A stretch of 45,040 nucleotides of DNA, the filler included, from Catajapyx aquilonaris (Eukaryota): NCBI GenBank assembly GCA_000934665.2. It is 2 parts of 2 records of this genome, joined end to end, with 100 filler letters (N's around TTAATTAATTAA, not from the genome) between each part and the next. Parts side by side here need not be neighbours in the genome. Positions count along the whole stretch, not along the records: positions 22,573 to 45,040 come from JYFJ02005864.1; 1 more part is not named here. One strand, written 5' to 3'. The first letter of the stretch is position 1. Each line of letters begins with the position of its first letter. Below are positions 25,056 through 42,972 of this stretch, one piece after another. The notes beneath the pieces were generated by a model that saw nothing but the letters and a program-made list of their open reading frames with translations, ran no database searches and had not been told where the DNA came from. Position numbers and translations under genes: made by a program.

Positions 25056-28000
25056 TCACACGATGACAGCCCAGGGTGTAAAAGTGCTCTTGTCAGGAAG
25101 AGGTGGCACCTGGAAGTGCAAGTATTGTCATAAGTACATGCTGATAATTGCAACAACTACTTTTAATAGTATCAAGCAGTTACCTTTGCTGTCAAATGAT
25201 CAGGGCAGGCCATCCTAATCCTCTCGGCAGTGGCAGGTGAATCGAGCCTGAAGTGTCCTTTGCCTACACCTGCATCGTCTCTAGCAGCTCTCAGAGCATC
25301 CTTCAAGGCGAAGAACACTGAAGAAGCAAGGAACAGGGGTGGTTCCCCAACTGCCTTTGACGACATCACTGCTCTGGGATTTGGGGCTCCCCTCAGCAAG
25401 GAAACATTAAACTCCTGAGGCACATCTGCAAATCCAGGAATCTTGTATGCTCCAGGTCCTCTTGTCAGCAAATGGCCCTTTGGAGAATACAGCAGCTCTT
25501 CCAGTGTGAACAAGCCCATTCCCTGGACAAAGGCACCCTCCACCTGCCCAATGTCAATGGCAGGGTTCATGCTCTCCCCAACATCCATCACTATGTCCGT
25601 CTTGAGGACCTGGTGGTCTCCTGTGAGACAATCCACTTCTACCTCACAGAAGGCTGCTCCAAAGCAGAAGTAATCGAACGGATTGCCACTGTTTGTTTCC
25701 CAGTTGTATCCTATATCAGGTGTCCTGAAATTGCAACGAGGATATTTTTAAAAAGTGCATCAAAACGGAGTGTATAAAATTTTAAAATGTCGATCCCCAA
25801 CCTGTAGAATCCGGTGACAGCAAGAGACACTCTCTCCATGTATGCCTCGGACACCCAATCTTCCCAAGTTCCTTTAGGATTGGCTGCAATGAAGGGCTCC
25901 AAACGCTCCATCAGAATCTCACAAGCATTCTGTAAAAATGTTTGATGACACAACGTTGACCACAATCTGCACATTTATAGTAATTCCAAGTGTTCCACAG
26001 AATTTCTGAACCCATATTATACAGCTTGAGGATATGACTGACCTGAACGGCCATTCCATTGAGATCTGAGCCAGAGCTGGCGGCAGTGGCAGATGTGTTC
26101 GGTACTCTGTCTGTTGCAGTCTCTGCCACATGTATCCTCTCAGGTGGCACACGCAAAACCCTGCAGGCCACCTGCACCATTTTTGTGTGTAACCCTTGGC
26201 CCATCTCTATGCCTCCATGACTAAGCAAAACGGAACCATCTCGGTAAACAAGAAGAAGAGCACCAGCTTGGTTCAGAAACTTTGCCGTAAAAGCGATGCC
26301 AAACGTGGTAGGGATCATGGCAATGCCCCTCTTCTTCCAGCGATTCTCACTAAAAAGGAGCAGTAAATGACGGATTATAGCAAAATATCAGTACGCCTCA
26401 TAGCCGTCATTTACCAGTTAAACTGATCCACATCCCTCCTGCGCTGGTCATAATTGGCCCTCTGGTAGCATTCCTCCCAGCATCTCCTCACCGTGCATCT
26501 CTCCAGCAGCTGATGGTAATGAGTTTCCTGGCCCTCCTGATAAAGGTTCAGCTGACGAACCAGAGCGGGCTCCACTCCAAGACGGGCTGCCACCTGGTCC
26601 ATCATATTCTCCCCTATAAACATTCCCTGAGGACCTCCAAAACCACGGAATGCAGTGTTTGAAGGCAGGTTGGTTCGACAGCATGCACCAGTCACCCTAA
26701 TGTTGGGAATCATGTAGGCATTCTGCACATGGAAGACTGCCCTCTCCAACACTGAGATGGACAGATCAGTAGTGTTTCCAGCATTGGCATAGAGTTGTAC
26801 ATCCAAGGCAGTAATGCGTCCGTCACGAGTGAAGCCAGCTCGGTACCTCCCCATGAAAGGATGTCTGCCGCCAGTGATAGCCATGTCTTCATCACGATCC
26901 AGCATGCAGCGAATTGGACGTTTATATCTGCAAGGGAAATATGTCAGTAGTTTTTGTGGCCAATTACATCACATGTACAACTTACTTGTTGACTGCTACT
27001 GCCATGGGCAATGCCAGCAGTGCAAACCTGCTCTCTTTCCCTCCAAAACCACCACCAATCCTCTTGATTCTGACATACACCTTATTTGCAGGTAAGCCTA
27101 ACGCATGAGATATTAGGTGCTGCAGCTCGCTTGGGTGCTGTGTGGAGCACACAACCTCCAACTCCTCTTCCCTCGGCACCACCATGCAGGCATGAGTCTC
27201 CAAATAGAAGTGCTCCTGGCCCCCCATTCGTACCTCTCCTTCTACTTCACCATCAGACTCTGCCCATCCTTGCTGCAGACTACCCCTCTCTATGCAACGA
27301 TGGAAATCCTCGTAGAATGACTTTTTCTCAACAGCCTCTTCTATGGTCAAGATAGTTGGGTGGATATCCTCATAGTCCACTTGAACTAGGCGGGCTGCAC
27401 GAAGAGCCAGGTCACGATCCTCTGCTATCACTGCACCAACGACCTGCCCGACACAAGTCACTGTTTCGGAGGCAAAGATCTCATCATCCTGGAAGATTGG
27501 GCCAGTACGGTTGCTCTCTGGCATCAGATCAGCAGCACTCACGAAGCCAACCACACCTTCCAAGGAAAGTGCTTTGGAAGCATCCACCTAGATTGAAGCA
27601 TGGGTGTTAACAATGCATTTCAAAACAGCTCAGCATAATATCCAGCATATCGGCTTAGACAGTTACAGACGAATTCATCGAACCTGCAAGACCCGAGCGT
27701 GTGCCCTGGTGCTAGTGACAAGAGCCATTGCTAACTCTTTCTCAAGGCGGGGAAAATCATCACAGTAAAGTGCCTCTCCAGTGGCCTGCTTGAGACCAGA
27801 CATGTGGACAAGGGGTCTTCCTATTGGGTCCCGTTCTGGCTGCCCTTTTGGAACTATCTGGTACATTTGAGAGCTTTTGGGAATATCAGTGTGAAGGGGG
27901 GAAGAAGCAGACATCTCCCTGGCTGAAGGGAGGATTGTGATGGTTGGAAAGTGCGGGTTGAGAGCTTTGCGGATATGATGATGGAATTTGAAAAAGAAGC

Positions 28001-31000
28001 TGAGAACGAGGGAACGGCGGTAGGCAACCATGCCTCCTGGGACTGACGGTGGTAGGGGAAGCTCTTCCACAAGGCTGCTGCAAACATCTTCAAGCAGAGA
28101 TTCATCCCATGACCTGCAACAAGCAAGTTCAGTCAATAATAGTCCAATCGTAAAATCAAAGTATTATTCAGTTTCACAGATTGTTCAGTCTACGGTGTAC
28201 CTATAATACTCAACATATGTACGAGCAATTGTCATTTACATATTCAAGGATCAAATTCATTATTACCTTCCCACAGCCAATTTAGCAGTCTTGAGTGCCA
28301 TGACGGCTGTGGGAGCCATCCCTCCAAAGGCCATGCTGAGCTCTTTCACCTTGGTCGTCCCAGGCTGGAAAACTACTCTCATCCCTGCATTTACAATGGC
28401 AATGTCATCATCACGACGCCTTGCCTGCTTGTAGCCCACAAAGTATTCGTTCTCTTGCATGTAAGGGAGGAACACATTTTCCAGCACCTCTTCCTGACGG
28501 ACAACGTTTCTGCGATATCCAGTGAAGAAAGTGCTGTCCAGAGGAACCTGCCTCTGTCCACCTGGGATGACAACAAAATGGATTTACTGTGTGGATCTTT
28601 TATGAACAATGAGTCGTGCAGTGAATATGCATACAATAAATGTGTGCACTCATTATAACTGGTGACTTCAGTGTCACCTGCAATTTTTTTTATAACGAAC
28701 CACTTTGAATATGGGTTCTTACTTTTACTGCGAAGAGTGAGTAGGCAGCCTGCAGCCATCATCAAAGGGATGAGGTCCGAAATGGGGCTTCCAGTCATTA
28801 TGTTGCCACCTATGCAACCAGCATTACGAATCTGCTTCCCAGCAAACCAGTGCAGCATGTCCACTATGGCGGACATCAACCAAGTCTTGCGCTCTGTAGA
28901 AACAACCAAAACAATTAAACTCATATAATAACTTAAAGGCAAGTGAATGGAATTAAGTCATAATAATGGAGATGGCAGTGTACTGTACCTGGTTCTCTAG
29001 CTATGGCCACTTTGAGTTCCTCCTCCATGTCGGACAAGCTGACTGAAGCTCCAACAGTAATTCCATGGCCATTGTGATCAACTCGGTTCAATTCCTTCAC
29101 TTCTCCAGGGTAGATTAAAACTGGATAGTAACAGTTCTTGAACTTCACTTCCACTCCTACAAACATGACATAAAACAATAATAATAATTAGAGGGCCTGT
29201 GTAGCAACAATAATGATTTAATTACAAAAATTAGTATTTAATTACAAAAATTAGGAGTTTCAACATTTCCTTAACTCACCTATTTCTGTGTTGCCCACTA
29301 CAATCTTTGCCTGAGGGTTCTTCTCTTTCAGATCAAGCAACTGGTCCATGGAAATTGGTCTAAACCACGCAACTCGTTTCCCATGTATGGACAAGTACTC
29401 CTCATCCAAATGAGACTGCAGCTGCAGCTCTGGAGGAAAGATTGGCTCCTGAGAAGGATCCAATGGCAAGTAGTGGGAAGGGTCAAACAGATGTCGCCCG
29501 ATCCCATCCTTCCTGTCCTCTTCCAGTGCCTTCTTGCAGCACCCATCCGCCTTGCCGCATCCACCACCACCACAGCATCCCCCATTCATCATTGGCGTTG
29601 GGTAACCGTTGCTCAGTCCCTCAGACGTCAGGGTCCTGTATCCTTCCAGAATGGGGCGGTAACCAGTGCAACGGCAAAGGTTTCCTGCATGGCGGCCAGA
29701 TGTCAAAGCATGCCTCCCAAATGATTAATTCAAGATACGCTGAGACCCACCTTGAAAGGCCACCTCAACCTCCTTCATGGAGGGCACAGGCTGATTCCTG
29801 AGGAGGGTGTACATGGACATGACTATCCCAGGAGTGCAGAAGCCACACTGGGATCCGTGGCTCTTGGCTATTCGTTCCTGGGCCGGATGCATGCCCTTGG
29901 CCACGCTGCCAATGCCTTCCACTGTGGTGATTGCAGTGCCATGGGCAGCACATAATGGGAACAGGCATGCATTCACTGCTATGTGGCTGCTAAGCGCTAA
30001 GGAACCCTCACTGCTGGCTCGCTAATGTTTCCTATGTTACTTATAAAGTCCAAGGCTTCAGATGACGAATTGAAATTTTCAAGAAATAACCAGTTAAAAA
30101 ATAATTATGATTTTGTATCTCGTATGTTTATAATAGGTCTTTAAATATCAGAGTGGGCTCATTCATTTAACAATATATTATTTGAATTATTACTTCTCAG
30201 CAGTTAATGATGGTATTTATGTTAAACAACAACAACAAGTTGCAACAGCAAAGGATACACAACTTTTTTCTTCTTTCGATCCATTTTTGAAAGCATCACT
30301 GTGCAGGCGCCACATCCACCTTCACCACATCCCAGCTTTGTACCAAACAGGTGCACTGTTCTCTCGATTAAGGAATAATTACATATAACCATGTTGTCAC
30401 CATGTTATGCCTAAGAATCAACTAAGAGATTGGAGATAAATGAACAAAGGAAGCAAAAACAATAGATTACCATTCTCCACACATTTCCTAGATAAGAAAG
30501 ATCGTTATTCCAGGAAAAAACCAGACCTGGATAATTGTCCTTTTACCAAGAAAACTGTCAATGCGTAAGCACTGCTTAATAGCAGGTGTACCCTACCTAC
30601 TTTCCTGGTCTCAAACATTGGGTATTTTTTTTAAACTTTCTTACCCATGTCCTGCCAAATGCTGTGAGAGAAAAAAAACTAATGTAGTTGGAAGATATCA
30701 AAGTTGGGCAATAGTCTTACCGAGTAATTTTTTTAAATGCACTTGAGAGAGTGAAATGAAAGTTCAACAAGTGTCAATTGTGTAAGTCGTTAAATGAGGA
30801 AAGATGTCTGGCAATATTCCAAGGTAATGATGGCACATAAAGAAGTCGCATTTGTGAGTGATCTTTGAACATGTCATGGTGTCCTTGAACAATGCCAGTA
30901 AACTTCAATCACAAGAAATTTCATAGACGAAAAAAAAAGTCATCTCTGACATTGTATCTTTCTTTGAACATACAGTACACTCAAAATCTGCCACTGAGAG

Positions 31001-31193
31001 GGCCACACAATCAGCCTTTAGGTGCAATCTGTTACGTAAGACAACTTTGAAAGTTATGACTGCGGCAATAAATATGTACACAGCAAAGGATACACTTATT
31101 CCGTAGGTATTGCAGCAAGGTCCATTCTGGCTCCACGTGTTCATCTTCAACTTTCTTCCCATTCACAAAAAACACTAACTTCTCGCTATCCAT
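25056..31193 (-). CDS. XDH: Xanthine dehydrogenase, copy B (canonical active site), 14 coding exons
   Basis: Starts [15 protein letters not shown]. Fe/S motifs [42 protein letters not shown] motifs [25 protein letters not shown]; Moco motifs [44 protein letters not shown]. Last exon 25109-25056 [21 protein letters not shown] boundaries traced. Confidence 0.95.
29987..30258 (-). other. U12-type (minor) intron 2 of XDH-B
   Basis: Donor GTATCCTTT (30258-30250); branch-like TTCCTTAGC (30004-29996) 9 nt before the 3' end; no polypyrimidine tract. Confidence 0.85.
30356..31093 (-). other. U12-type (minor) intron 1 of XDH-B
   Basis: Donor GTATCCTTT (31093-31085); branch site TTCCTTAAT (30375-30367) 11 nt before the 3' end; no polypyrimidine tract. 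Confidence 0.92.
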
Positions 31194-32227
31194 CTTGAAT
31201 CCTCAGATGAATTCCACAGCCGCACTCGCCCTAAAATTACGTACCAATTCGTGCACTCTGTTTGCACATATTTAATGCAGATTCACGTATAACAACATGC
31301 AGTCGTGCTTTAAAAGAAATCTAATCACTTACCTGCCCTTATATGCAAGGCAATATAATCTCTGGCAGACGATAAGCACACACTGGAAGGAAAACGTCTG
31401 GTTGCAGCAACATCCAGGAACCTACTGGCCAAGAGAGGGAGGCAAAATTGTCCTTGACCTGAGAGGTTGCCCTGAAGCTGTCGAATCGTAACCTTTCTCT
31501 TGAAATGCGAGGCCCACTATCAGGTTCCTGCCCTTATCTTGCCCTTGACATCCTTTTTTTCTGTGAAGCTTAAGATGTGGTTGTGTAACCATGTGGAACA
31601 AAACAGGGGAAGGGATTGGCACAACCAGCCAAGGCACATGATTGCACTGATTATGTGGGTTTGGGAACAGATGCAATATATTGTGCACTGGAATATGTAG
31701 GAAAAAAACCAAATTTTTTCACCTTGTGTGGGTAAAATACACCATTAATGGTAAAATACATCCGTAAGATTTATGAAATATGTACTGAAACAAGCATGCA
31801 TTACAAACAGGTTATTTCTTCCAAAGTAACGTGCTGATGCAATACAATGGACAGTATGGGGTATTGACAGAGAAGCACTTTCGTTTATGAACAGATTATG
31901 TCACTTTATCTAATGGGAAAGTGAGAGGTTATCAGCTAACTGTTGCAAATAATCAAACTAAAACTGATCATAAAACAAACCTGCACTTCCTTGATAGATG
32001 TACGAATAAACAATGGTAAGATATGTTCTGAGGGGTCGATGACATTTGATATAATCACACTGTCACTTTCAGTTATTAATGTGAAGTCCTACGACAACAT
32101 GGCACATGCAACATAATATCAACAGAAATGAAAAGTTATGCAAATTATGTTGAAAATAAGTCCCCTGCAGTACTGGTGCCACAATAAGTCCTGACGATGC
32201 AATTATATGCTCTTTGGTCCTGATGCT

Positions 32228-35200
32228 TCATACAGTGATAGACCATGGCGTAAAAGTGCCCTTGTCTGGAACAGGCGGCACCTAAAAGACCACATAATGA
32301 ATTTACATAAGCAGTTACATAAAAGCAAAGATGACTGTCTCATTTTGATTTTTTTTTGGACACAAAGATCTAGAATTCAGAAGATTGAAGCAACGTTAGC
32401 AACACTGTGTTACCTTTGCTGTCAGATGATCACAACATGCCATTCTAATTCGCTCCACAGTGGCAGGTGAATCAAGCCTGAAGTGACCTCGGCCAACCCC
32501 AGCATCTTCTCTAGCTGCCTTCGCAGCCTCCTTAATGGCGAAAAAGACAGAGGACGACAGAAATAGCGGTGGTTCCCCAACTGCCTTCGACGACATCACT
32601 GCTCTGGGATTGGGAGCTCCCCTCAGCAAGGCCACGTTGAACTCCTTCGGCATATCTCCAAACCCCGGTACTTTGTACATCCCAGGTCCCCTTGTCAGAA
32701 GCTCCCCTTTTGGTGAATACAGCAGCTCTTCCAGTGTAAACAGGCCCATTCCCTGGACAAAGGCACCCTCCACCTGCCCAATGTCAATGGCAGGATTCAG
32801 GCTCTCCCCAACGTCCATCACTATGTCTGTCTTAATAACTTGATGGTCTCCAGTGAGACAATCAACCTCCACTTCAGAACAGGCTGCTCCAAAGCAGAAA
32901 TAATTGCATGGCTTGCCAGTCTTAGTATCCCAGCTGTAGCCGATGTCAGGTGTTCTGCAGAGAATAGGGTGGTATGGGAGCAACTATTGACATTTCCTTA
33001 CTCAATCATATAACGTCGCCTGCATCTTACTGCCAGATATAATTAATTTACCCGTAGAATCCAGTTGTTGCCAACGACACTCGATCCAAGTATGCCTGCC
33101 TCACCCAATCTTCCCAACTTCCTTTTGGGTCCGACTTCATGTACGGTTCCAGACGCTTCATTAATGCCTCACAAGCATTCTACAAAATATCAACATTTCA
33201 AGTGTAGGTAAATAATGAGAGTCAATTTTAAATCAGTCTGACCTGCACTGCCATTCCATTAAGATCTGAGCCCACACTGGCTGCTGTAGATGTTGTATTG
33301 GGGACTTTGTCTGTTGCAGTCTCAGCCACGTAAATCTTTTCAGGGGGGACCTGGAGAACCCTGCTGGCCACTTGCACCATCTTTGTGTGCAATCCTTGGC
33401 CCATTTCAACACCACCGTGGTTCAGCAGAATTGAACCATCTCGGTAAACAAGAAGTAGAGCCCCAGCCTGGTTCAAGAATCGACTTGAGAAACCTATGCC
33501 ATATAGCGTAGGGATCAGGGCTATTCCTCGCTTCTTCCAGCGATGCTCCCTGCGGTACGACAAGTAACATTATGTAGAAAATTCTACATGTTTAACAATT
33601 CAAATCCTTACTGATTGAACTGCTCCACATCCATCCTCCGCTGGTCATATTTAGCCATCTGATAGCACTCGTCCCAGCAACTCTTTAGTGTACATCTTTC
33701 CAGAACTTGTCCGTAAGGCATCTCCTGCCCTTCTTCATACAAATGTAGCTGTCGAATTCTCACTGGGTCTATTCCTAGTTCTGCTGCCACATGGTCCATC
33801 ATGGTCTCCGCTATGAACATGGCTTGGGGTCCACCAAAAGCTCTAAATGCGGTGTTTGATGGCAGATTGGTTCGACAAGACACTACATCGACCCTAATAT
33901 TAGGAAACATGTAAGCATTCTGTGCATCAAAAATGGCCTTCTGTACAACAGGTGAAGAGAGGTCAGCAGTATTGCCAGCATTTGAATACATGTGAACTTC
34001 CAAAGCGGTGATTCGTCCCTCATGAGTGAAACCAACGTGGTACTTTCCCAAAAAGGGGTGCCTACCACCAGTAATGCACATGTCTTCATCACGGTCAAGC
34101 ATGCAGCGAACTGGACATTTATACCTGCAGAAAGAGAAGGAAACTACCATTATACAAAAGCCTAGTTTGTACGACTTACACAATTAATCATGACCATAAC
34201 GGGCACGAACACTGATACAATTCATGGGAGGTGCGTTAAAGGCACAGCAACTCACTTATAAGCAGCCACAGCAACAGGTAAAGCCAGCACTGTACATCTG
34301 GTCTCCTTTCCTCCAAACCCTCCTCCAATCCTCTTGACTTTTACATACACCTTGTTGGTAGGCATCCGCAGCACTTGAGAGACAAGTTGTTGCAGCAGGG
34401 TTGGATTCTGAGTGGAGCATGTGATTTCCATCTCATCTTCCCTCGGCACCACAAAGCAGGCTTGAGTCTCCAAGTAGAAGTGCTCCTGCCCCCCTATCCG
34501 CACCTCCCCTTCCACCTCCCGGTCTGAATCTGCCCAACCCTGCTGCATGCAGCCTCTCTCTATGAAGCGAGAAGAGTCTCCTAAAAACATCTTGTGCTCA
34601 ATGGCTTCCTCGATGGTCAAGATCGTTGGATGAATGTCCTCGTAATCCACATGCACTATTCGAGCAGCACGACGAGCCAGATCACGGTCACAAGCCAGTA
34701 CTGCACCTATGACCTGGCCTACACAGGTCACAGTCTCAGAGGCAAAGATCTCATCGTTTGAGAAGGTAGGAGCAGTGTTGTTGTTCTCTGGAGCCAGGTC
34801 TGCAGCACTGACGAAGCCAACCACGCCTTCCAGGGAAAGGGCTTCTGAGGGGTCCACCTGGGTGTATACATGTGTTGAGCATTAGATCTGATTTAAATAA
34901 ACAGTGATATAAGCACATCCTTGATGACATACCTTCAGGATGTGAGCGTGTGCCCTGGTGCTAGTGACAAGAGCCAGTGCTAACTCTTTCTCCAGACGGG
35001 GAAAGTCATCGCAATAAAGTGCCTCTCCGGTGGCTTGCTTGAGACCTGACATGTGGACAAGGGGTCTTCCTATCGGGTCCCACTCTGGCTGTCCTTGTGG
35101 AACTATCTGGTACAGCTGAGAGCTTTTGGGAATGTCTAAGTGAAGGGGAGAAGAGGCAGACATTTCCCTGGAGGGTGGGAGGGTGGTGATGGTAGTTAGG

Positions 35201-38066
35201 TGTGAGCTGAGGACTTTGCAGACGTGAAGATGGAACTTGAAAAAGAAGCTGAGAACAAGTGACTGACGGTAGGCGACCATCCCTCCTGGAACTGAAGGCT
35301 CAAGGGGGAACTCCTCCACCAGACTGGAGCATACGTCCTCAAGGAGAGATTTGTCCCATGCCCTGTAATTGATAAGTTCTGCAAGATACTTGGCGGTAAA
35401 GAAACTCCACAAGATGCACAGTATATCCTGACCACTAACATTGTCTTGATATTTGTACATGTAGTACAGTACTTACCTTCCCACAGCCAATTTAGCAGTC
35501 TTGAGTGCCATGACGGCTGTGGGAGCCATCCCTCCAAAGGCCATGCTGAGCTCTTTCACCTTGGTCGTCCCAGGCTGGAAAACTACTCTCATCCCTGCAT
35601 TTACAATGGCAATGTCATCATCACGACGCCTTGCCTGCTTGTAGCCCATGAAGTATTCGTTCTCTTGCATGTAAGGGAGGAACACATTTTCCAGCACCTC
35701 TTCCGGACGGACAACGTTTCTGCGATATCCAGTGAAGAAAGTGCTGTCCAGAGAAACCTGCCTCTGTCCACCTGGGATGAAAATAAAAATGGATTTACTG
35801 TGTGTATCTTTTATGAACAATGAGTCGTGCAGTGATTATGCATACAATAAATGTGTGCACTTATTATAACAAAGTGACTTCAGTGTCACCTGCAAATTTT
35901 TTCATAACGAACCACTTTGAATATGGGTTCTTACTTTTACTACGAAGAGTGAGTAGGCAGCCTGCAGCCATCATCAAAGGGATGAGGTCCGAAATGGGGC
36001 TTCCGGTCATTATGTTTCCTCCTATGCAACCAGCATTACGAATCTGCTTCCCAGCAAACCAGTGCAGCATGTCCACTATGGCGGACATCAACCAAGTCTT
36101 GTGCTCTGTAGAAAAAACCAAAACAATTAAACTATGAAGAAAATTTCTGTATCAAAAGTCCTAAGAATGGAGATGGCAGTACGTGCTGTACCTGGTTCTC
36201 TAGCTATGGCCGCTTTGAGTTCTTCCTCCATGTCGGAGAGGCTGACTGAAGCTCCAACAGTAATTCCATGGCCATTGTGATCAACTCGGTTCAATTCCTT
36301 CACTTCTCCAGAGTGGATTAAAACAGGATAGTAACAGTTCTTGAACTTCACTTCCACACCTACAAACATGACATACGTAGAGCAATAGTCAGAGCAAATA
36401 TAATTGGACGGCTTCACTAGCAACAATTAGGTTGCAAAAAGCACGCAGTTTCAACATTTCCTTCTCACCTATTTCTGTGTTGCCCACTACAATCTTTGCC
36501 TGAGGGTTCTTCTCTTTCAGATCAAGCAACTGGTCCATGGAAATGGGTCTAAACCATGCAACTCGTTTCCCATGTATGGACAAGTACTCCTCATCCAAAT
36601 GAGACTGCAGCTGCAGCTCTGGAGGAAAGATTGGCTCCTGAGAAGGATCCAATGGCAAGTAGTGGGAAGGGTCAAACAGATGTCGCCCGATCCCATCCTT
36701 CCTGTCCTCTTCCAGTGCCTTCTTGCAGCACCCATCCGCCTTGCCGCATCCACCACCACCACAGCATCCCCCATTCATCATTGGCGTTGGGTAACCGTTG
36801 CTCAGTCCCTCAGACGTCAGGGTCCTGTATCCTTCCAGAATGGGGCGGTAACCAGTGCAACGGCAAAGGTTTCCTGCATGGCGGCCAGATGTCAAAGCAT
36901 GCCTCCCAAATGATTAATTCAAGATACGCTGAGACCCACCTTGAAAGGCCACCTCAACCTCCTTCATGGAGGGCACAGGCTGATTCCTGAGGAGGGTGTA
37001 CATGGACATGACTATCCCAGGAGTGCAGAAGCCACACTGGGATCCGTGGCTCTTGGCTATTCGTTCCTGGGCCGGATGCATGCCCTTGGCCACACTGCCA
37101 ATGCCTTCCACTGTGGTGATTGCAGTGCCATGGGCAGCACATAATGGGAACAGGCATGCATTCACTGCTATGTGGCTGCCAAAGAGATAAAGAGGTGAGT
37201 TAATTTGTTGGTCACAGGACTTCCTTATTACGAAAAATCTATTTTGTCATTTCCTTTGCTCGTTACTGTCAATTTTGTTATAACCAATGTTCCAAGAAAT
37301 AACATCATTAACATGCATTAATATGTAACTTTTTTCACAATGATCAAAAGTGACTGAATGTTAAAAGAATACATACACAATTACGTTCTTCCGGCGATCA
37401 ATTTTCGACATCATCACAGTGCAGGCTCCACATCCACCTTCTGCACAGCCAAGTTTTGTACCATACAAGTTTACTATTGTAATGGTTAAGAAATTTTCTT
37501 TGAAATGGAACAGAACTGTGTTGCTAGATAATAAATTGACAAGAAACAATTTAAATCTACACTACACCAATGATTTTTTAAATAGAAATTGTGGAAATAT
37601 AGTTTCCGAGTAAACTCTGGATTTACATTAGGGCCTACTGTAACACTACAAATGTCATAAGGAAAATTGAAATTGCATTTGGCAGTATCACTTTATCGTT
37701 ACTATTGACAAGCTTTCTAGTTAATCGGCAGAAGATAGTAATGTCCTCGGAACTTAATAAATCAAGGCCAAATGTTATTGATTCCTGAGAAGTTCTAAAG
37801 CTACCATGAGGCAGACACTCTTATTGTTGTTCACTTATGCTACAAAATCAGAAACATGGAAGTGCAGTAATGCAAAACACTGCCAATTTTCAAAATTCCC
37901 TGCATGAACTAATTTTACACATCTTCGGTAAATACTTGTCACTAAATCAAAATGCATTAAGGATACATTTAGTGCGCAGATACTGCAGCAATGTCCATTC
38001 CGGCTCCACATGTTCATCCTCCACCTTCTTTCCATTGACATAAAACACTAGCTTGTTACTGCTCAT
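32228..38066 (-). CDS. XDH: Xanthine dehydrogenase-like paralogue, copy A (divergent substrate pocket)
   Basis: Starts [15 protein letters not shown]. Same exon structure and motifs as copy B (exon 1 100 nt, exon 2 97 nt). Ends [17 protein letters not shown]. Moco domain has VVQKAIF and AFRAFGGPQ in place of VLERAVF and AFRGFGGPQ. Confidence 0.93.
37474..37966 (-). other. U12-type (minor) intron 1 of XDH-A
   Basis: Donor GTATCCTTA (37966-37958); branch site TTTCTTAAC (37493-37485) 11 nt before the 3' end. Confidence 0.88.
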
Positions 38067-38542
38067 CTTAAAACTGAGGAGTCACCCAAGCACACAGCAC
38101 AGGTATAAGTGAACACCATTGCACAATGTGAAGCAAGGTTGCGTCCTTGTTTTTTTCCTGATAACTGAACTCATTATATAACTCAACCACTAAACAAAGT
38201 CATGTCAATAACATTCACACCTTCAATAGAGTGCAGTATTCCACCTAATAGTAATCACTTACAACCTTATGTACATGATTAAAAAGTGCAGTTTACAGAA
38301 TGATGTCACTAGTTACACTCTGGCGTCTCCGTATTGCCTCTTACACTGGCCAATAACCAATTGTATTTGCACATATAAGGTAGATTTTTTGGGGGAAAAA
38401 AGTGTATCTTATATGGCGCCAAATACAGGCCTGTGCAATTATTAAAAGGGACGTTTTCTGAAATTGTCATCCAAGAAGACACATATTATGCAAAAAACAA
38501 TATATTGTCAATACCTAGGACTGTACAAACGCATTTAAAAAC

Positions 38543-41315: not shown

Positions 41316-42635
41316 TCACACCATATCACACTGTGTCACACCATACTTGGCCATAAACTCTTCTTCCTGCATTCTCTTACCTGTGCTTAGACGATGGTAA
41401 TATAACACCATAAAGGCCACGCCAATAAAAAATGCCAGGAAAGCACATACAAACAAGAGGGTGTCGTACCATCTGTGTTCGTACAGTTGCACATACCAAC
41501 ATATGAGCAGTCCTGCATTCGTCAAGAAATATACAACATACGACACACCATGCTTCCACGTTGGGATATCATCGTCCAAATCGGTGCAGCAAAAAATTAA
41601 CATAAATCCCTTGGAAGTGTTCCAGAGGATCCAATTCAGGCACCTGTTAGTGCAGCCTCCTTCCATCTGCCACATAATCCAACATGTCATGACCAACCAA
41701 TGGCCTCCGCACATTATGACCAGTAATCCTGGTAGTACTACGCCAAAGAGGGCAAGTGCGATAAGTCTCATGGCCAAGACCCCCAGGAACCCAAAGAACT
41801 GCAAGGCTGTTGCACTCCACGTGAAGTTTCTGTAGTTCGTGAGGAAATAATGCCTGCTTCGGTGATAAGATGCAACAGACCATGCCAGGCTCAGCAGGGA
41901 TATTGCAAGCCCAATGCCGAGCCCAACACGTTTGTAAAAGTCGTCATCACCTGTGTGGTCCGCCTGCAATGGTGCATGTTCTGCGTTAGACATAATTATA
42001 CCAGCGTGCACACGCAAAGAACCAACTCTTACCTTGTAAATATACAAGTGTAACACAAACTGCGGTCCAGATTCCATGAAGGCTTCAAACAACCTGAGAG
42101 ACGCAGCAGCAGAATCTTCATAGACCATCAGGGCGAAGAAAACCACCTTTTCTTTTCTGTTTGCCGCCTTCCTGTTCTTCCAACCATACCAGAAGGACTC
42201 GCAATATCTCGGAATTGGTGCCAACAGAAACACCATACAAACTCCTCTGCAGAGCTGTCTTGTTCGACTGACAGGGGGCAGATATTCCTTGTCCAGATCC
42301 AGCTGGTACCAGTATAAGCTCATAACGGACATGACCATGCCGGGGACTAGAGCGAAGATCAATGTAAGGGCATAGTACCAGGTCTTGTCCTGCTGGTAAA
42401 ACTTGTATACCAGGTACATGTCCATGCCAAGATCACCAAGGTACAGGAAGAGTGAGAGAAGAGTCAAAACCAGGCTCCAACCACTCACATTCACTGACTC
42501 GTCATCCGGCTTCTCCACACCATTCGACCCTGGCTGCGTCCCATTTGTAGGACCTTTCTCTTCAGCAGGGGGTTGTCCAAGTTCAATACTCAGTGTCCTC
42601 CGAAAAAGCCTACCACAGATTTTGCTCAACCGCAT
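41316..42635 (-). CDS. XK-related protein (Xkr scramblase family); probable 69-nt intron at 42032-41964
   Basis: Multi-TM ORF with YLGDLGMDMYLVYKFY, SLYWY, LRLFEAFMESGPQFVLHLYI, SLLSLAWSVASYHR, RLIALALF, HWLVMTCWI, FMVLYY. The true start may lie further upstream. Confidence 0.88.
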   Translation of the reverse strand: MRLSKICGRLFRRTLSIELGQPPAEEKGPTNGTQPGSNGVEKPDDESVNVSGWSLVLTLLSLFLYLGDLGMDMYLVYKFYQQDKTWYYALTLIFALVPGMVMSVMSLYWYQLDLDKEYLPPVSRTRQLCRGVCMVFLLAPIPRYCESFWYGWKNRKAANRKEKVVFFALMVYEDSAAASLRLFEAFMESGPQFVLHLYIYKVRVGSLRVHAGIIMSNAEHAPLQADHTGDDDFYKRVGLGIGLAISLLSLAWSVASYHRSRHYFLTNYRNFTWSATALQFFGFLGVLAMRLIALALFGVVLPGLLVIMCGGHWLVMTCWIMWQMEGGCTNRCLNWILWNTSKGFMLIFCCTDLDDDIPTWKHGVSYVVYFLTNAGLLICWYVQLYEHRWYDTLLFVCAFLAFFIGVAFMVLYYHRLSTGKRMQEEEFMAKYGVTQCDMV

Positions 42636-42972
42636 GATGAGCAGGTTTCTCCAACCTTTTAAGTGCTAACAGTAACGTAAACTAGGGCAATCAACCAACA
42701 AATTTAAACTAAAGGTAACAGCAATGGCATCTTCTCCCTGCTCCCTCTCGTACGACCCTTTACAGCGATGCCAATGGTCCGGTACCAGGTATAGAAACAA
42801 GACATTGTTATTATTATTAGTTTAACTCGTAATTTTAATTCAGACACTTCAAACAATGGAATATAGTAGCAATCCCTATGGCAAAGTTGTTCATAAATTT
42901 TTGTAAGGAATGTTTCGGAAAAGTGTTTCTCCCATGTTTCCCCCCAGTTGGTGACAATAAGCTGCCGAAAAC

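Follow-up and report, generated by a model that had tools for sequence, protein, structure and literature searches.

A probable four-base duplication route from a U12-type to a U2-type intron in a tandem pair of xanthine dehydrogenase genes of Catajapyx aquilonaris

How can an intron pass from the minor to the major spliceosome while the exon junction that it interrupts stays where it was? The question is raised by a locus of Catajapyx aquilonaris (GenBank assembly GCA_000934665.2), in a stretch of 45,040 nucleotides, filler included, that was analysed whole and is called the window below. Within it, in the part taken from JYFJ02005864.1, tblastn finds two complete xanthine dehydrogenase (XDH) genes in tandem on the minus strand. 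Intron 2 of one of them, copy B, has the signals expected of a U12-type intron, while intron 2 of the other, copy A, has U2-like signals at the same place. Here we propose, with a probability of roughly 0.65, that XDH-A intron 2 switched from the U12 to the U2 class by a 4-nt tandem duplication at the start of the intron.

Gene models were built by protein-to-genome spliced alignment with insect and amphioxus references, either of which yields an identical model. Copy A, the upstream copy (32228..38066, minus strand), and copy B (25056..31193, minus strand) each consist of 14 coding exons and 13 introns in an intact frame. All 14 coding exon sizes are equal between the copies, and the introns match in position and phase. 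The 26 introns comprise 23 short ones of U2 type and three that begin with GTATCCTT, namely intron 1 of copy A and introns 1 and 2 of copy B. Splice signals were scored by counting mismatches, with the other XDH introns of both copies serving as controls. By its signals, intron 1 is of the U12 type in both genes: in copy A (37474..37966, minus strand) it runs from GTATCCTTA to TTCTTAAC, with 11 nt left to the AG, and in copy B (30356..31093, minus strand) from GTATCCTTT to TCCTTAAT, again with 11 nt to the AG. Exon 2 of copy B (30355-30259, 97 nt) is flanked by two consecutive minor introns; exon 2 of copy A (37377..37473, minus strand, also 97 nt) is preceded by the U12-type intron 1 and followed by intron 2, the switched one. 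The two exons 2 differ from each other by about 20%.

Copy B intron 2 (29987..30258, minus strand, 272 nt, phase 2), which we read as the ancestral state, begins with GTATCCTTTGCTGT and ends with GGTTCCTTAGCGCTTAGCAG. Its donor, GTATCCTTT (30258-30250), has 0 mismatches at offset 0 and fits RTATCCTT at the junction. Its branch motif, TCCTTAGC (30003-29996), differs at one base from TCCTTAAC and has its A 12 nt upstream of the 3′ splice site; for U12-type introns Turunen 2013 (PMC3584512) gives an optimum of 11-13 nt. The intron has no distinct pyrimidine tract, with a pyrimidine content of 50% that is the lowest of the 26 XDH introns, tied with copy B intron 1. Judged by its sequence, with this donor, this branch motif and no pyrimidine tract, the intron is of the U12-type GT-AG kind as the published definition has it.

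Copy A intron 2 (37176..37376, minus strand, 201 nt, phase 2) stands between the exon end ...AAGAACGTAATTGT and CCACATAGCAGTG; it starts with GTATGTATTCTTTTAAC, of which GTATGTATTCTTT is the opening, and ends with CTCACCTCTTTATCTCTTTGGCAG. The initial annotation had placed it at the same position and phase as the U12-type intron 2 of copy B, and the spliced alignment agrees: the two introns interrupt one shared valine codon (GT|C) in phase 2, with a conserved histidine next. Its description of the donor, as GTATGT followed 4 nt later by a motif one mismatch from the U12 donor, is equally accurate. The intron opens with GTATGTAT, a perfect 2 x 4-nt tandem repeat (37369..37376, minus strand), in which bases one to six, GTATGT, make a U2-type donor on the ancestral exon junction; the same hexamer is the donor of copy A intron 8. 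RTATCCTT is absent from the junction, where GTATGTATT is found, and the sole near match is displaced to +4. There, at 37372-37364 on the minus strand, GTATTCTTT differs by one C>T from GTATCCTTT and can be viewed as the displaced former U12 donor.

The 3′ end of this intron is also of the major class in appearance. A pyrimidine tract, TCACCTCTTTATCTCTTTGG (37179..37198, minus strand), immediately precedes the CAG, and its content of 80% in the 20-nt window 37198-37179 ties the highest of the 26 XDH introns. Just upstream of the tract lies TTAAC (37199..37203, minus strand), a candidate U2 branch site of the yUnAy form, the second A of which is 25 nt from the 3′ splice site. The tract had been noted in the initial annotation together with the lack of a U12 branch consensus, and this second part stands with a qualification. 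The tract contains TCTTTATC (37193-37186), which has 2 mismatches to TCCTTAAC and is located 10 nt from the intron end, approximately where copy B has TCCTTAGC. Because 4 of the 22 control U2-type XDH introns likewise reach 2 mismatches to the U12 branch motif, TCTTTATC is indistinguishable from chance as a branch relic. Together, the GT-AG ends, the G at +5, the pyrimidine tract and the yUnAy candidate suggest that the major spliceosome now most likely excises copy A intron 2, splicing at the original junction.

The available sequencing data are four DNA runs of one sample and a small run, X5, whose kind is unstated and which behaves like RNA. DNA contigs of three of the runs cover 37150-38400 with 0 differences, and GTATGTAT is therefore no slip of the assembly. 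Beyond the opening bases, intron 2 of copy A and intron 2 of copy B are unalignable (z 1.5), and aligning them for further relics yielded none.

The direction of the change was examined in outgroups. Human XDH and mouse Xdh are listed as minor-intron genes with the 5′ splice site CGT|GTATCCTTT by Olthof 2019 (PMC6717393), whose supplements give ATGACCTTAATC as the branch motif of the human intron. For each of the two species, that catalogue has a pair of minor introns in XDH with 97 nt between them; the human pair is at chr2:31401329-31403047 and 31403145-31405906, with mouse likewise (PMC6717393). Exon 2 of the Catajapyx genes aligns to residues 35-65 of human XDH in a search of the PDB and, taken with its length of 97 nt, this identifies the split codon as the valine of ...KIV|HFSANACL.

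To these we added metagenome contigs, scanned for codons for C-G-A-C-T-V-M with GTATCCTT 20-50 nt further on. The scan returned 34 loci, of which 30 have a eukaryote-type XDH exon 2 with a gap of exactly 35 nt and phase 2, forming 18 clusters at about 90% exon 2 identity. In the other 4 of the 34 the gap is 37 and the frame stays open; these were rejected as chance hits in bacterial xdhA. The nearest named proteins come from ants, bees, an orthopteran and a mayfly, and several loci match unnamed proteins placed beside coral sequences in the hit list. Exon 3 is included in 17 loci, and an unambiguous in-frame AG acceptor in 14; loci L003, L012 and L022, with ambiguous acceptors, were excluded from the count of branch motifs. 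In 12 of these 14, a branch motif of no more than 2 mismatches lies 4-22 nt from the intron end, and the conserved histidine is present in all 14 of the exon-3 starts examined. On the other side of exon 2, AG or AC stands at -97 in 15 of 28 loci, together with a branch motif that has at most one mismatch. Four loci (L017, L021, L022 and L024) have CTG| before exon 2, in contrast to the CAG| of the closely related L020 and L033; with the good CCCTTAAC branch motif upstream, the introns of these four may be of the U12 type with a non-canonical TG end.

In a FastTree tree of the protein region outside the gene-conversion block described below (852 columns, 34 sequences), copies A and B are sisters with a support of 1.0, and their clade is placed inside the pancrustacean arthropods. 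By its own account, the initial annotation would have been contradicted by a U2-type intron at this position in outgroups; what human, mouse and the 30 metagenome loci carry here is a U12 donor. Since the copies are sisters and the outgroups have the U12 donor, the U12 state predates the duplication of the gene, and copy A acquired its U2-like state secondarily. A change from U12-like to U2-like in copy A, after a lineage-specific duplication, is thus strongly supported.

These observations are consistent with the following history. Well before arthropods and vertebrates split, XDH would have had two neighbouring U12-type introns around the 97-nt exon 2, and a tandem duplication of the gene in an arthropod-like lineage would have given rise to the pair, with copy B retaining both U12 introns. 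The ancestral junction would have read ...GT|GTATCCTTT. In copy A, a 4-nt tandem duplication would then have turned GTAT into GTATGTAT, giving ...GT|GTATGTATCCTTT, building GTATGT at the unchanged junction and shifting the old donor 4 nt into the intron. A later C>T in the displaced donor, producing GTATTCTTT, would have led to the present GTATGTATTCTTT. At the 3′ end a pyrimidine tract and the TTAAC candidate at -25 would have been gained and a clear U12 branch site lost; as the 3′ end also had to change, the whole switch would have taken more than one mutation.

Splicing at the original junction would leave the split valine (GT|C) and the conserved histidine behind it as they were. Immediately after the duplication, the displaced donor at +4 would have been intact and still usable by the minor spliceosome. 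With the normal acceptor this donor adds 4 nt and brings in a stop before the end of exon 3, from which we infer that the redundancy of the two copies made the transition tolerable. Both the C>T that altered the relic and the disappearance of the branch site may have been favoured once it was past. The duplication as a historical step, the order of events and the present dependence on the U2 machinery are what we infer from the letters of the two genes and their relatives.

Several features of the junction argue for the duplication itself, and the initial annotation's reading of GTAT as duplicated comes out well supported, though not proven. One indel and one substitution explain the first 13 bases of the intron, and the motif at +4 has a chance level of about 0.002-0.003. 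Copy A has GTAT GTAT followed by TCTTT, where GTAT occurs once in copy B and in the 30 outgroup loci (for the latter by design of the search). GTAAGTAT is complementary to the 5′ end of U1 snRNA, and GTATGTAT agrees with it at 7 of 8 bases. The new donor provides G at +5 and T at +6, and changes at +5 and +6 are held to convert GT-AG U12 donors (Lin 2010, PMC2831892).

The chance level comes from a simulation of 400,000 draws under a first-order model trained on the XDH introns. A match to GTATCCTTT within one mismatch at +4 after GTATGT has a simulated probability of 0.0021, and the same match at any offset from +1 to +12 one of 0.0034. Real sequence gives a similar picture. GTATGT occurs at 31 sites in the window, and the motif follows at +4 in one of them, copy A intron 2. 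Nine-base words within one mismatch of GTATCCTTT occupy 23 of 90,064 window positions, four of which are the XDH sites. Among the 22 other U2-type XDH introns, none has anything better than 3 mismatches within +0..+12. A further GTATCCTTA at 24814-24806 (minus strand), past the AATAAA of copy B and with no exon or gene context, was set aside as most likely a chance match.

The same figures bear on the possibility of a genuine switch that came about in place, through point mutations such as C>G at +5 and more, with GTATTCTTT a coincidence of a T-rich intron start. Substitution in place is the route described in the literature (Burge 1998 as reported by Lin 2010, PMC2831892; Turunen 2013, PMC3584512; Baumgartner 2019, PMC6865273), and the rest of copy A intron 2 is saturated with change, so that short similarities call for caution. 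By this route, nonetheless, three or more of the opening seven bases would have to be substituted (GTATCCT to GTATGTA), possibly by way of point-mutation intermediates of the GTATGCTTT type, where the duplication needs one indel and one substitution. It would also leave to chance a one-mismatch nine-base word at exactly +4, to which none of the 22 control introns comes close, as well as the exact tandem repeat GTATGTAT. We regard this origin as unlikely.

A number of observations weigh against the duplication history or limit it. With the two introns unalignable and synonymous divergence (dS) between the copies above 1, the survival of a neutral 9-nt relic is somewhat lucky: we estimate the chance of at most one change in such a relic, had the switch immediately followed the gene duplication, at about 10%. 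This suggests either that the switch is younger than the gene duplication or that the relic is constrained. The relic, as GTATTCTT, still satisfies a published rule for U12 5′ splice sites (PMC2846911), and the intron has a branch look-alike of 2 mismatches, TCTTTATC, at a suitable distance. X5, the sole RNA-like run, ends short of exons 2-3 in both copies. A protein search with exon 3 for transcript-derived junction fragments gave a best identity of 74-78%, with none from Catajapyx aquilonaris; in a first protein search no match exceeded 56% identity. No intermediate allele appears in the DNA contigs, which come from one sample and lose rare variants. Finally, the metagenome scan demanded GTATCCTT, so it establishes that the U12 state is widespread without giving the frequency of U2 introns at this position.

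In another reading, copy A intron 2 is still wholly or partly spliced by the minor spliceosome through GTATTCTTT and TCTTTATC, as a dual-class, twintron-like intron. GTATTCTT fits RTATCCTT with T allowed in place of one C at +5/+6 (PMC2846911), TCTTTATC is suitably placed 10 nt from the 3′ end, the relic is better preserved than the intron around it, and nested U2 and U12 signals have a precedent in the dipteran dURP twintron (Lin 2010, PMC2831892). The products speak against it. Used with the normal AG, the +4 donor shifts the frame by 4 nt and the product meets a stop within exon 3, in a gene under purifying selection. Used with an AC four bases downstream, it would remain in frame and change His to Tyr, at a histidine kept in 14 of 14 outgroup exon-3 starts, and GT-AC combinations are described as disfavoured (Turunen 2013, PMC3584512). 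The branch look-alike is matched by 4 of 22 controls, moreover, and 80% pyrimidine is a U2 feature. We therefore consider present use of the minor spliceosome here distinctly improbable.

Both genes are intact. The frame of copy A is 1349 codons long, and internal stops number 0 in copy A and 0 in copy B. Outside exons 3-7 the copies differ with dS of 1.1-1.7 and a ratio of nonsynonymous to synonymous divergence (dN/dS) of 0.07-0.12; neither XDH copy is recent, and purifying selection acts on each of them. RNA-like X5 contigs reach the 3′ end of copy A, the intergenic stretch, the 5′ end of copy B and a piece of its intron 1. Their GT..AG joints on the minus strand, at a depth of 2-3, confirm the last intron of copy A (32413-32282) and two introns in the 5′ untranslated region (UTR) of copy B (31230-31331 and 31383-31458), whose 5′ UTR and exon 1 are covered by spliced contigs. 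From these joints in A and B, both genes appear to be transcribed. One X5 contig (30854-31082) lies wholly within the U12-type intron 1 of copy B and could represent a retained intron or pre-mRNA.

It is accordingly very improbable that copy A is decaying and that its intron 2 is a broken U12 intron no longer removed. The slightly longer branch of copy A in the protein tree (0.194 vs 0.141 for copy B) favours decay, and the exon 2-3 junction without transcript evidence may be counted on the same side. Against it stand a frame of this length without stops, the retained exon sizes, a dN/dS near 0.1, the transcribed 3′ end with its last intron spliced, and a new donor and pyrimidine tract that are good U2 signals.

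The reverse polarity, in which a U2 ancestor persisted in copy A and copy B gained U12 signals, for instance by loss of four bases, can be dismissed: one conversion from U2 to U12 is known, in dURP (Lin 2010, PMC2831892), and the identical starts of copy B introns 1 and 2 could hint at donor copying, but the U12 donor in human, mouse and 30 outgroup loci (18 clusters), with A and B as sisters within the arthropods, refutes it as long as these introns correspond in position.

These identical starts are an observation in their own right. Introns 1 and 2 of copy B share their first 14 bases, GTATCCTTTGCTGT (31093-31080 and 30258-30245, minus strand), with an exon GT before each. The identity runs five bases past the consensus, and outgroup donors have no consensus at +10 to +14. 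The shared bases of the two donors, which are 835 nt apart, may reflect micro-conversion.

Sequence exchange of a larger kind has taken place between the copies. A 1.7-kb block extending from exon 3 to exon 7 of copy A, introns 3-6 included (35473..37182, minus strand), is 94% identical to copy B 28263-29993, with dS of 0.043 inside against 1.1-1.7 outside; it is a recent gene conversion. The edges of the block fall on exon/intron borders, at the 3′ splice site of intron 2 (GCAG|) and four bases into intron 7 (GTAA), and intron 2 itself lies just outside. Introns 2 and 7, which cannot be aligned between the copies, may keep homogenisation from spreading further. Among the DNA contigs, 35724-35933 also occurs in an alternative form that has 10 differences and 2 gaps of one base, and a joint (36375-36464) omits 88 nt around copy A intron 4. 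Both are probably pieces of the converted block of copy B placed on copy A, or a second haplotype. Next to the XDH pair, the list of open reading frames (ORFs) includes one of 449 codons at 41316-42665 (minus strand), which would encode a multi-pass membrane protein that we take to be XK-related.

How the copy A intron fits into the wider picture depends on what conversion is thought to require. Baumgartner 2019 (PMC6865273) holds that it needs single-nucleotide changes in sequence, by way of weak intermediates, and the literature offers an explanation for why minor introns have lasted for more than 1 billion years and why they are deleted more often than converted (PMC2831892, PMC6865273, PMC3584512). 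Olthof 2024 calls the mechanism of conversion "relatively understudied" and proposes "minor-like" intermediates. The XDH locus would be a concrete alternative, in which one short duplication sets a new donor on the old junction and a duplicate gene tolerates the transitional defect. It is well anchored, since the intron is deeply conserved (human, insects, corals), the unswitched copy lies 7 kb away and a U12 intron stands 97 nt upstream. A search of the full-text literature found no conversion in which a short tandem duplication sets the donor on an unchanged junction, although Burge 1998 and Zhu and Brendel 2003 might hold one.

A more tentative idea, which we think possible but rather doubtful, is that duplication of GTAT is a general, recurrent and frame-preserving shortcut from GT-AG minor to major introns. 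In that case XDH-A would be the first example caught, its former donor still legible inside the intron and perhaps even now a competitor for the minor spliceosome. Were it general, any GTATCC donor would be one slippage from GTATGTATCC, a duplication with an intact relic and a strong U1-type donor, and the "valley" of weak intermediates would be avoided. Recurrence of GTATGTATYC at former U12 positions would alter models of conversion rates; otherwise copy A remains a single neat example of a known process.

Minor introns in XDH and AOX1, U12-to-U2 conversion, routes through cryptic or shifted sites and nested signals are all already known, and copy A can be compared with each. In human and mouse XDH, the split valine codon (CGT|GTATCCTTT, vs TTGT|GTATCCTTT in copy B), the 97-nt exon and the GT-AG subtype are like those of Catajapyx (PMC6717393). 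The mammalian genes represent the unswitched state, whereas Catajapyx copy A has lost the minor-type signals of its second intron and kept those of its first. Mammalian AOX1 has one catalogued minor intron, with the 5′ splice site AGC|GTATCCTTT in human and ATC|GTATCCTTT in mouse (PMC6717393). With one such intron against two in XDH, of which it is an old paralogue, AOX1 is a possible independent parallel. The exon-final C would suit a leucine codon split in phase 1, in which case the minor intron of AOX1 may be intron 1.

In the dURP twintron (Lin 2010, PMC2831892), as in copy A, two donors of different class stand only a few bases apart, and both sets of signals are reported there to be active. 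The inner U12 donor of copy A is a candidate that would break the frame with the normal acceptor. A further twintron with nested U2 and U12 signals is found in prospero.

Conversion from U12 to U2, between orthologues and between paralogues, goes back in the literature to Burge, Padgett and Sharp 1998 (as cited in PMC2831892, PMC3584512 and PMC6865273). There, as in the comparison of A with B, duplicated genes hold at the same codon and phase one intron of the U12 type and one of the U2 type; the pair also shares the GT-AG subtype, which according to Lin 2010 (PMC2831892) converts most often. In the Burge-type cases C changes to G at +5 through weak intermediates, whereas in copy A the G at +5 and T at +6 would have come in one event that left the old donor readable. 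Conversion by way of a nearby cryptic U2-type 5′ splice site is described by Turunen 2013 (PMC3584512, citing Zhu and Brendel 2003), and a splice position shifted by three amino acids between Trichinella and C. elegans by Bartschat and Samuelsson 2010 (PMC2846911). In these cases, as in copy A, a U2-type donor near the U12 donor takes over. They move the exon boundary, however, whereas the new donor of copy A lies exactly on the old junction, and because the inserted bases would have set it there, the protein of copy A would have been left unchanged.

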